From a virus (lineage: Duplodnaviria; Heunggongvirae; Uroviricota; Caudoviricetes): 12,873 nucleotides of DNA. The notes beneath the pieces are model-generated. The model worked only from the letters and a program-made list of their open reading frames with translations. It was not told the origin of the DNA and did not search any database. Each line of letters begins with the position of its first letter. Position 1 is the first letter of the stretch. Both the position numbers and the translations under genes were made by a program. Of the stretch, positions 4,104 to 10,252 are shown in pieces. Where the stretch lies: IMG/VR virus record IMGVR_UViG_2909309443_000005. One strand, written 5' to 3'.

Positions 4104-4159
4104 TGATCTTACCCAGCAATAGTGGACACGCGGCTAAGTGAGTAAACTCTCAGTCAGAG

Positions 4160-4468
4160 GTGACTCACATGACAAAAACAGTATCAACCAGTAAAAAACC
4201 CCGTAAACAGCATTCGCCTGAATTTCGCAGTGAAGCCCTGAAGCTTGCTGAACGCATCGGTGTTACTGCCGCAGCCCGTGAACTCAGCCTGTATGAATCA
4301 CAACTCTACAACTGGCGCAGTAAACAGCAAAATCAGCAGACGTCTTCTGAACGTGAACTGGAGATGTCTACCGAGATTGCACGTCTCAAACGCCAGCTGG
4401 CAGAACGGGATGAAGAGCTGGCTATCCTCCAAAAGGCCGCGACATACTTCGCGAAGCGCCTGAAATGA
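4160..4468 (+). CDS. insE: IS3 OrfA (transposase N-terminal / DNA-binding protein)
   Basis: 102-aa ORF starting [32 protein letters not shown]..., matching IS3 OrfA from memory; helix-turn-helix plus leucine-zipper-like C-terminus. Confidence 0.95.
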
Positions 4469-5331
4469 AGTATGTCTTTATTGAAAAACATCAGGCTGAG
4501 TTCAGCATCAAAGCAATGTGCCGCGTGCTCCGGGTGGCCCGCAGCGGCTGGTATACGTGGTGTCAGCGGCGGACAAGGATAAGCACGCGTCAGCAGTTCC
4601 GCCAACACTGCGACAGCGTTGTCCTCGCGGCTTTTACCCGGTCAAAACAGCGTTACGGTGCCCCACGCCTGACGGATGAACTGCGTGCTCAGGGTTACCC
4701 CTTTAACGTAAAAACCGTGGCGGCAAGCCTGCGCCGTCAGGGACTGAGGGCAAAGGCCTCCCGGAAGTTCAGCCCGGTCAGCTACCGCGCACACGGCCTG
4801 CCTGTGTCAGAAAATCTGTTGGAGCAGGATTTTTACGCCAGTGGCCCGAACCAGAAGTGGGCAGGAGACATCACGTACTTACGTACAGATGAAGGCTGGC
4901 TGTATCTGGCAGTGGTCATTGACCTGTGGTCACGTGCCGTTATTGGCTGGTCAATGTCGCCACGCATGACGGCGCAACTGGCCTGCGATGCCCTGCAGAT
5001 GGCGCTGTGGCGGCGTAAGAGGCCCCGGAACGTTATCGTTCACACGGACCGTGGAGGCCAGTACTGTTCAGCAGATTATCAGGCGCAACTGAAGCGGCAT
5101 AATCTGCGTGGAAGTATGAGCGCAAAAGGTTGCTGCTACGATAATGCCTGCGTGGAAAGCTTCTTTCATTCGCTGAAAGTGGAATGTATCCATGGAGAAC
5201 ACTTTATCAGCCGGGAAATAATGCGGGCAACGGTGTTTAATTATATCGAATGTGATTACAATCGGTGGCGGCGGCACAGTTGGTGTGGCGGCCTCAGTCC
5301 GGAACAATTTGAAAACAAGAACCTCGCTTAG
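4465..5331 (+). CDS. insF: IS3 OrfB (DDE transposase catalytic domain; expressed as OrfAB by -1 frameshift)
   Basis: 288-aa ORF overlapping the orfA stop in the -1 frame; contains DDE/rve-type residues (…WAGDITYL…[10 protein letters not shown]…SFFHSLKVE…). Confidence 0.95.
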
Positions 5332-5361
5332 GCCTGTGTCCATATTACGTGGGTAGGATCA

Positions 5362-6752: not shown

Positions 6753-7117
6753 TCTGTAAATATTTTTATAAAAATAATGCCCACACACAGCATAAAACAA
6801 AAAGTATCACAGATAAAAAAGGAGCGTAATGTGCAGATTTGTTGTTTTCCATATTTACTCACTTTAACATAATCAATATTGATATGGTTGTTGTTTTGGT
6901 GGTTTCAAACGAGATGTTATGGTGATCTGGTAAAATTGCATAACATTAAAATTTAATTTATCTAATCGCTTTTAATAATAAGCGTTGTGTTTATCCCAAC
7001 AATCTGTTGTTTGACTTTTATTCCATTAATGTAGGGGCTTTACACTGGAACCAGTTTATTTATACTTTATACGCCAGCCTGAACAACTGGCACCTGCTGC
7101 GCCAGCAGAGACAACCG

Positions 7118-8447: not shown

Positions 8448-8464
8448 TTTTGTGGAGTAAGTTG

Positions 8465-8844
8465 ATGCGTGATATTCAGATGGTTCTTGAGCGTTGGGGG
8501 GCATGGGCGGCTAATAATCATGAAGATGTGACCTGGTCGTCCATTGCCGCCGGTTTTAAGGGATTAATTCCTTCAAAAGTAAGATCTCGTCCGCAATGCT
8601 GTGACGATGACGCGATGATCATTTGTGAATGTATGGCTCGCCTGAAAAAAAAAACAACAGCGATTTACATGATTTATTGGTGGACTATTATGTCGGCGGC
8701 ATGACTTTTATGGCGCTTGCACATAAGCATGGGCGATCTGATTGTTGGGTTGGCAGGATGCTCCAGAAAGCTGAGGGCGTAGTGGAGGGCATGCTGATGG
8801 TGTTGGATCTCCGATTGGAGATGGATGCTGATTGTTCGAAATAA
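8465..8844 (+). pseudogene. Late antiterminator Q (small QuuD/DLP12-type), disrupted by frameshift in an A10 homopolymer
   Basis: ATG 8465 (SD GGAG 8453-8456) encodes [22 protein letters not shown]...CECMARLKK up to the A10 run at 8645-8654. The frame then shifts so that a second frame (8653 onward) encodes [63 protein letters not shown]. Joined, the product is about 125 aa, the size of QuuD. With 8 or 11 As the gene would be in frame. Confidence 0.75.
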
Positions 8845-8892: not shown

Positions 8893-8943
8893 GTTGGAAT
8901 CGCAACGTAGTTATTATCATATAACAGCTTGTTTCCTGATTTA

Positions 8944-8971
8944 GCCAGCCTCCCCAAAGGCTGGTTTTTTT
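8944..8971 (+). terminator. Intrinsic terminator (tR'-like): GCCAGCC-TCCCCAAA-GGCTGG(T) hairpin followed by T7
   Basis: Stem 8944-8950 / 8959-8965 and T-run 8965-8971, read directly from the sequence. Confidence 0.6.
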
Positions 8972-9189
8972 CTAATAAGTATCATTTCGGGTGGGGATTT
9001 TATTGTTTAACCCATAATAGTTCATTGACATTGAATCCCAACTTTTGAGCGGTACGCACATAGTCTGCTTTTACATTATCTGGAATAGTTTGGGTCCTTG
9101 CCAGAATCCATAGGTATTCTCTGTTCGGACCACTGGTGATGCTGCCAACTTACTGATTTAGTGTATGATGGTGTTTTTGAGGTGCTCCA

Positions 9190-9465
9190 GTGGCTTCTGT
9201 TTCTATCAGCTGTCCCTCCTGTTCAGCTACTGACGGGGTGGTGCGTAACGGCAAAAGCACCGCCGGACATCAGCGCTATCTCTGCTCTCACTGCCGTAAA
9301 ACATGGCAACTGCAGTTCACTTACACCGCTTCTCAACCCGGTACGCACCAGAAAATCATTGATATGGCCATGAATGGCGTTGGATGCCGGGCAACTGCCC
9401 GCATTATGGGCGTTGGCCTCAACACGGTTTTACGTCACTTAAAAAACTCAGGCCGCAGTCGGTAA
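9190..9465 (+). CDS. insA: IS1 InsA
   Basis: 91-aa [48 protein letters not shown]..., matching IS1 InsA from memory. Confidence 0.95.
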
Positions 9466-9887
9466 CCTCGCGCATACAACCGGGCAGTGATGTGATTGTC
9501 TGCGCGGAAATGGACGAACAGTGGGGCTACGTCGGTGCTAAATCACGTCAGCGCTGGCTGTTTTACGCGTATGACAGGATACGGAGGACAGTTGTGGCGC
9601 ACGTTTTCGGTGAACGCACTCTGGCCACACTGGCGCGTCTTCTGAGCCTGCTGTCGGCCTTTGAGGTCGTGGTATGGATGACGGATGGCTGGCCGCTGTA
9701 TGAATCCCGCCTGAAGGGAAAGCTGCACGTTATCAGCAAGCGTTACACTCAGCGCATTGAGCGACATAATCTGAATCTGAGACAACATCTGGCAAGGCTG
9801 GGACGGAAGTTACTGTCGTTCTCAAAATCGGTGGAGCTGCATGACAAGGTCATCGGGCATTATCTGAACATAAAACACTATCAGTAA
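9384..9887 (+). CDS. insB: IS1 InsB' frame (transposase InsAB' made by -1 frameshift from insA)
   Basis: 167-aa ORF in the -1 frame relative to insA, overlapping it around the A6C motif. Confidence 0.9.
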
Positions 9888-9902
9888 GTTGGAGTCACTA
9901 CC

Positions 9903-10252
9903 ATTACTTGCATCATCATTTTTCCTGTTGGACTGGTCAGGTCAATGCCACCCAATGCTAAGCAATGCACTCTGATACCTGTTTCGGTCAGTTGTTCCAC
10001 TGTTTTCCTGATATCCATTGCATTACAACCAAGGCGATCCAGTTTTGTCACAATCAATTGATCACCACATTTCAGGCGAGCAAGCAACCGGTTAAAACCA
10101 GGACGCTCACTGGTTGCTGCTGAGCCGCTAATGTGTTCTTCGATTATTTGCTGAGGTTTGATTTTAAAACCTGCACTTTCGATTTCCCGGCGTTGATTTT
10201 CGGTGGTCTGATCCAGCGTTGATATCCGACAGTAAGCAAAAATTCGAGACAT
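9903..10252 (-). pseudogene. pinQ: Pin-type serine recombinase (DNA invertase), 5' ~116 codons, 3'-truncated by IS1
   Basis: Minus-strand ORF from ATG 10252 encodes [31 protein letters not shown]...[45 protein letters not shown], a serine-recombinase catalytic domain resembling PinQ/PinR as I recall them. The frame runs into the IS1 right end, and the last codons of the six-frame ORF are IS1-derived. Confidence 0.8.

Follow-up and report, generated by a model that had tools for sequence, protein, structure and literature searches.

Results

Organization of the prophage remnant

The DNA analysed here, a stretch of 12,873 nucleotides that we call the window, contains an 11.6-kb remnant of a prophage at the Qin site, between rspB and a split ydfJ. 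Its genes follow one another in the order int, xis, exonuclease, IS3, abiH′, hokD, a small ORF, ydfU, Q, blc′, IS1, ′pinQ, ydfK, ynfT and ydfJ′. Alignment to K-12 and to Escherichia coli FORC_031 places pinQ and ydfK towards ydfJ and int towards rspB, the arrangement of a Qin-type site. The window is without the lysis cassette and late genes that follow Q in K-12 and in the relative FDAARGOS_1077.

A complete IS1 of 768 bp occupies positions 9135-9902 on the plus strand. Its terminal inverted repeats (IRL, 9135-9157; IRR, 9880-9902) match at 18 of 23 positions. The insA gene (9190-9465) gives full-length Pfam matches to Zn_ribbon_InsA and HTH_Tnp_IS1, the insB frame (9384-9887) a full-length match to DDE_Tnp_IS1, and an A6C −1 frameshift motif read from the sequence, AAAAAAC at 9441-9447, joins the insA and insB′ frames. 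The element thus has the length, the imperfect inverted repeats of ~23 bp and the insA/insB′ plus A6C organization of the IS1 family, and because the Pfam matches of insA and insB are full-length it looks functional. It is a variant, identical to IS1A at positions 1-292 and with 42 differences beyond (~9% divergent). The 9-bp flanks differ, CGGACCACT (9126-9134) on the left and ATTACTTGC (9903-9911) on the right, which means that there is no target-site duplication in the window. A preliminary description of this DNA had reported a complete IS1 at 9135-9902 with non-matching 9-bp flanks, and the repeats, the Pfam matches and the flank comparison bear this out. The absence of the 9-bp duplication is a sign of secondary rearrangement and not an argument against membership in the IS1 family.

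On the left, the Q antiterminator gene (Phage_antitermQ family; 8465..8844, plus strand) was assigned by alignment to the FDAARGOS_1077 locus and by the Pfam match of an intact relative. In the window it is frameshifted (+2) at a run of ten A residues (8645-8654) that has eight in FORC_031, 503829, FDAARGOS_1077, TW10598 and B2C, and the ORF list accordingly splits it into two frames, 8450-8704 and 8629-8844. Either the mutation is genuine and inactivates Q, or the homopolymer was misread in sequencing. Q of TW10598 is likewise annotated as frameshifted, but at another site. About 100 bp past the Q stop codon begins a hairpin followed by a T-run (8943-8975, plus strand), detected in a consensus scan as a putative intrinsic terminator at the position expected for tR′. 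The preliminary description had seen only ~160 bp of post-terminator DNA here. The terminator-like hairpin is there, but the 135 bp at 9000-9134 (minus strand) are the 3′ end of a Blc-like lipocalin gene that is convergent with Q, as judged from the translation, the RefSeq annotation of relatives and Pfam. The fragment comprises the last 44 codons and the stop codon of a 174-aa protein and matches positions 104-146 of the 146 of Pfam Lipocalin_2. The left breakpoint of the deletion described below therefore lies inside the lipocalin gene and not in spacer DNA. The minus-strand translation of the left flank, which ends in TAQKLGFNVNELLWVKQ before the stop codon, had at one point seemed to resemble a recombinase helix-turn-helix, that is, the missing Pin C-terminus separated by a simple IS1 insertion. 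We rejected this reading: by Pfam the translation is a lipocalin C-terminus, and intact PinQ has another ending.

On the right, positions 9903-10252 (minus strand) hold a 5′ fragment of pinQ, codons 1-116 plus 2 nt, as determined by Pfam and by alignment to K-12 PinQ; the earlier assignment of this flank to the interior of a Pin-type invertase gene was correct. Its first nine base pairs, ATTACTTGC at 9903-9911, are the surviving right-hand copy of the original 9-bp duplication, as the comparison with FDAARGOS_1077 tells; the same 9-mer is single in the pinQ of 503829. The fragment covers positions 1-116 of 145 of Pfam Resolvase (PF00239, E = 3e-25), and its open frame extends 7 codons into IS1 (ORF 9881-10252). 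Relative to PinQ, the serine invertase of Qin, the 116 retained residues are nearly identical, with one difference from the K-12 protein (R3Q), and most of the catalytic domain is kept, while residues 117-196 are gone. These comprise the end of the Resolvase domain and HTH_7, the DNA-binding domain found at residues 147-190 of intact PinQ. HTH_7 is needed for activity, and pinQ of the window is a pseudogene that cannot make an active recombinase. According to a published report (PMC12529663), inversion of the e14 P segment by PinQ of Qin blocks adsorption of phage T2. IS1 insertion would abolish this contribution, for which paralogous Pin recombinases may compensate. Since the left flank is a lipocalin 3′ fragment and the right flank a pinQ 5′ fragment, IS1 joins the interiors of two genes.

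An undeleted relative retains IS1 and the missing DNA

A query that combined the 3′ half of pinQ with the 9-mer expected to be duplicated and the left end of IS1 was matched in one piece (99.7%) by E. coli FDAARGOS_1077. This strain has the same IS1 variant inserted at the same nucleotide of pinQ and flanked on both sides by a perfect 9-bp duplication, ATTACTTGC. The corresponding empty site, with a single ATTACTTGC, is found in the uninterrupted pinQ of 503829 and of K-12. Between Q and pinQ the FDAARGOS_1077 locus contains blc, ybgA, a gene for an HTH regulator, the lysis cassette essQ-ydfR-rrrQ-rzpQ, then cspI, ymcF, ynfR, ynfN, gnsB, two small ORFs and the large terminase subunit, and finally a fusion of portal and tail-protein fragments, followed by tfaQ and the 3′ part of pinQ. 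The window aligns to positions 1-1952 (99.9%) and 14211-17948 (99.5%) of this locus (L004), and so corresponds to it minus positions 1953-14210, i.e. 12,258 bp. The FDAARGOS_1077 locus, which retains both IS1 and the 12,258 bp missing from the window, is the pre-deletion state, and the comparison supports an IS1-associated deletion of the lysis, cold-shock and tail-fibre genes, as originally proposed. Of the deleted DNA, the 2.8 kb at the right-hand end are present as a whole in only 11 genomes and in none of the 15 complete genomes of the window type. The search for the missing pinQ 3′ half recommended in the preliminary description, made with this 2.8-kb query, hence did not find it whole elsewhere in the 15 genomes; this half was deleted.

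The FDAARGOS_1077 prophage itself already lacks head and tail genes. Because it has only the portal fragment fused to the tail fragment, formation of particles was impossible even before the deletion, and what the deletion newly removed was the lysis cassette and the cold-shock/gnsB cluster. The suggestion that the IS1-mediated loss left a prophage unable to lyse or to form particles thus describes the window properly, but the failure to form particles predates the deletion.

Comparison with K-12 Qin and a second deletion at IS3

The window resembles K-12 Qin in its chromosomal site and in its ends: the segment ydfJ′-ynfT-ydfK-pinQ is 99.3% and int 99.2% identical. In K-12 the order is ydfJ′...pinQ-tfaQ-stfQ-nohA...cspI-rzpQ-rrrQ-ydfR-essQ-cspB-cspF-ydfT(Q)-ydfU...intQ′, next to rspB, and the order of its late genes is that of the undeleted FDAARGOS_1077 locus. 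The comparison confirms the order that the preliminary description had given for K-12, in which Q and pinQ are separated by cold-shock, lysis and tail-fibre genes. The differences are several. The antiterminator Q of the window is not that of K-12 and is shorter (125 aa, PF06530), the window lineage has a convergent blc-ybgA-HTH module past Q that K-12 Qin is without, and the stretch that reaches from blc into mid-pinQ has been lost. Whereas K-12 intQ is annotated as a pseudogene, the int and xis frames are open in the window.

In addition, an IS3 stands in the window where K-12 has the immunity and dicB region. This IS3 (4104-5361) lies between the exonuclease gene and the truncated abiH, has no target duplication and replaces 6,860 bp relative to 503829 (L002, 9665-16524). 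The replaced stretch comprises ydfD, dicB, ydfA/B, a dicA/dicC-like repressor pair, ydaT, an ORF of the replication region, DUF977 and the 3′ part of abiH, and the IS3 site is a second IS-anchored deletion in the prophage of the window. The same junction is found in FORC_031, M9682-C1, F5656C1 and B2C, and also in TW10598, which has an IS21-family element inside IS3. It is present in the examined genomes of both deletion groups, and IS3 was already in place of the immunity and replication region when the deletion from blc to pinQ occurred.

Distribution and left endpoints

The right junction of IS1 with pinQ occurs in 28 complete genomes, mostly ETEC isolates, and is identical in all. Fifteen complete E. 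coli genomes have both junctions of the window; the strains identified among them are human-stool isolates, namely FORC_031, TW10598, B2C and a series of E-numbered diarrhoeal isolates. At the other end of the element, the carriers of the right junction join the IS1 left terminus (IRL) to five different partners. In FDAARGOS_1077 the partner is the 3′ half of pinQ, with the duplication, and in the 15 genomes it is blc, at window position 9134. M9682-C1 alone has its endpoint downstream of hokD, at the equivalent of window position 6794 (L003, 8001), F5656C1 and ten others have it 17 bp further, at the equivalent of 6777 (L009, 7134), and in 254D-1 it lies in xis, at the equivalent of 1526. In the window the junction is at base 1 of IRL, with a 1-bp ambiguity (G). 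The strains with endpoints at 6794 and 6777 are related and have the same string of IS1 alleles, which suggests stepwise extension of an adjacent deletion. The IS1/pinQ junction and the set of left endpoints provide handy lineage markers for the carriers, mostly ETEC.

Alleles and recombination of the IS1 copies

Genomes of the window type contain at least 40 IS1-matching places each. The IS1 copies at the pinQ site (the window, L001, L003, L004 and L008-L011) vary in patches, at positions 127, 262-304, 345-414, 573 and 677 of the element, a pattern that indicates frequent gene conversion among the many copies. The pin-site marker CACCT at 262-304 is kept in three genomes with the blc′ junction, FORC_031, TW10598 and B2C. 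The IS1 of the window has the common genomic allele TGATC at 262-304, together with the pin-site alleles at 573 and 677.

An additional IS1 lies in xis of FORC_031 (L001, 4351-5118), where it is flanked by a duplication of its own, CTCTTCGGA. In 254D-1 a single IS1 (L006, 5001-5768) combines the left flank and the 262-304 alleles of the xis copy with, in its right half, the alleles at 573 and 677 and the right flank of the pinQ copy. The whole interior of the prophage is lost and int-xis′-IS1-′pinQ remains. Going by its alleles and flanks, this element is demonstrably a product of homologous recombination between the IS1 in xis and that in pinQ, with a crossover between positions 304 and 573. 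The IS1 of the window is base-for-base identical to it. The mosaic composition of the window element, with positions 1-292 as in IS1A and the rest 9% divergent, was considered as a proof of recombination and rejected, as it belongs to a lineage-wide variant present in other copies.

Discussion

We have little doubt that the locus has a two-step history, in which IS1 inserted into pinQ and an IS1-anchored deletion of 12,258 bp followed. In a defective Qin-type prophage located between ydfJ′ and rspB, IS1 entered pinQ at codon 117 by ordinary transposition, producing the 9-bp duplication ATTACTTGC. The subsequent deletion extended from the exact IRL terminus of IS1 to a point inside blc. It removed the left copy of ATTACTTGC, the 3′ part of pinQ, tfaQ, the tail, portal and terminase remnants, the genes gnsB-ynfN-ynfR-ymcF-cspI, the lysis cassette essQ-ydfR-rrrQ-rzpQ, the gene for the HTH regulator, ybgA and 130 codons at the 5′ end of blc. 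The insertion and the deletion can both be read from the loci compared above, and it is the manner in which the deletion was made that we infer. It is IS1-anchored under either of the two mechanisms weighed below.

In our judgement the deletion was probably a transposase-mediated adjacent deletion. In such an event the resident element transposes intramolecularly to a target close by; IS1 and its other junction are kept and no duplication is left. IS1 is a classical source of adjacent deletions, for instance in the gal region. Adjacent deletions with stepwise extension have been described for IS150 in the long-term evolution experiment (PMC11708052). Like known adjacent deletions, the window retains the IS and one junction, and its new junction lies exactly at the IS terminus; it also has no target duplication, and its lineage shows an earlier simple insertion at the site and nested or stepwise endpoints. 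Next to these examples there would be nothing unusual in the window, the transposase route being our reading of the junctions. Some observations can be held against it: recombination between IS1 copies is seen at the same element in 254D-1, and the blc region is a proven IS1 target, with an IS1 junction in a paralogous lipocalin gene 22 bp away.

These observations lead to an alternative that we consider less probable but which deserves serious attention, namely that a second IS1 had inserted in blc, with its own duplication of CGGACCACT, and that a RecA-dependent crossover with the directly repeated IS1 in pinQ left one hybrid element. Recombination of this kind is what the chimeric alleles of 254D-1 document, the copy number of IS1 in these genomes is very high, and the junction in the lipocalin paralogue implies that the site attracts IS1. 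Moreover, the alleles of the window, TGATC at 262-304 and the pin-site alleles at 573 and 677, are those expected from a crossover between 304 and 573. However, the identical blc′ junction occurs with the pin-site CACCT in the three other genomes named above. The simplest reading of the TGATC patch is therefore a later gene conversion, since recurrent origins of an identical deletion would otherwise be required. The CACCT marker by itself only confines a crossover to positions 1-261 of IS1. A simple insertion of IS1 in blc would also have a right junction in which IRR is joined to the 5′ part of blc, GAGTCACTACC being followed directly by CGGACCACTGACAAGAGC. No such insertion, with its duplication, was found in the 5,426 complete genomes, nor did an exact scan of metagenome contigs find this right junction; since only one sequenced genome keeps the pre-deletion region, the absence of a double-IS1 intermediate is weak evidence. 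The alternative also leaves unexplained the endpoints at 6794 and 6777 at the same IS1 end. Two endpoints 17 bp apart would be hard to obtain by recombination between IS elements, and they fit stepwise adjacent deletions.

The case that the preliminary description had named as contradicting an IS1-mediated deletion, a simple insertion of IS1 into an already deleted locus, would further require that the duplication was lost later. Other lineages have indeed lost the region independently, for example 503829 with its araC′-IS1A-pinQ arrangement. A fusion of blc′ to ′pinQ lacking IS1 was looked for and is present in none of the 5,426 genomes, the right junction is identical to that of the bona fide simple insertion in the undeleted FDAARGOS_1077 locus, and the flanks of the window element have no 9-mer in common; we regard this course of events as highly improbable. 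An assembly artefact, in which reads collapsed over IS1 repeats joined unrelated junctions, is hardly credible either. IS1 is highly repeated in these genomes, and the run of ten A residues in Q points to homopolymer-type sequencing noise in the window, but the same two junctions are present in 15 independently assembled complete genomes from several countries, with which the window is otherwise collinear.

Insertion of IS1 in pinQ and a subsequent adjacent deletion, our preferred explanation, follow a textbook pattern, in which an IS insertion and then an IS-anchored deletion occur in a decaying cryptic prophage; this is ordinary, well understood and of an already known kind. RefSeq genomes annotate these genes and the IS as such. 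No publication describing IS1 in pinQ, judged by titles and abstracts, turned up in a full-text literature search. The deletion explains a Qin remnant that has no lysis, cspI, gnsB or tail-fibre genes and in which pinQ and the lipocalin gene are pseudogenes. Its importance is mainly for annotation, and no new biology is implied.

Related loci have undergone comparable events. In 503829 an IS1A that is 94.5% identical to the IS1 of the window (L002, 22574-23341) lies outside pinQ, has no duplication and replaces positions 4230-13835 of the FDAARGOS_1077 locus, a stretch that begins within the HTH regulator gene and ends with tfaQ. This is an independent, convergent loss of the lysis, cold-shock and tail region that spared blc, ybgA and pinQ. 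The arrangement Q-blc-ybgA-araC′-IS1A-pinQ of this strain had been considered as the ancestor of the window, which would then have lost only ~2.6 kb. We rejected it because its IS1A is only 94.5% identical, sits at another site and belongs to an independent deletion.

In a second prophage of the same strains, lying next to ybhC in FORC_031, the order DUF2513-IS1-′lipocalin is found (L005, 9383-10562), the lipocalin gene being a 97%-identical paralogue of blc. The right end of this IS1 joins the paralogue 22 bp from the breakpoint of the window, in a geometry like that of a 22-bp duplication. A junction of this type is also present in FDAARGOS_1077; as the Qin blc of that strain is intact, the junction in the paralogue arose independently. 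It had been examined as the reciprocal product of a single insertion or inversion, a candidate rejected in view of the 97% paralogue and of an overlap of 22 bp and not 9. The junction may reflect an IS1 target hot spot in the lipocalin gene.

Altogether there are at least four IS1-anchored left endpoints in ETEC genomes, in addition to the independent IS1A-anchored loss in the 503829 lineage. A more far-reaching interpretation, which we think unlikely, is that the repeated loss of the Qin late region reflects selection against the Q-driven lysis and late module and that the 22-bp lipocalin sequence GGTATTCTCTGTTCGGACCACT is a genuine IS1 hot spot. This sequence would be a candidate because two paralogous genes of one genome each received an independent hit there. 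If true, the repeated loss of the late region would not be neutral decay.

The locus has changed further in E66, where additional IS1 copies adjoining tehB have taken the place of the left part of the prophage (L008, 885-3382) and an IS5 lies between ′pinQ and ydfK; in this strain, IS-driven erosion of the locus is continuing.
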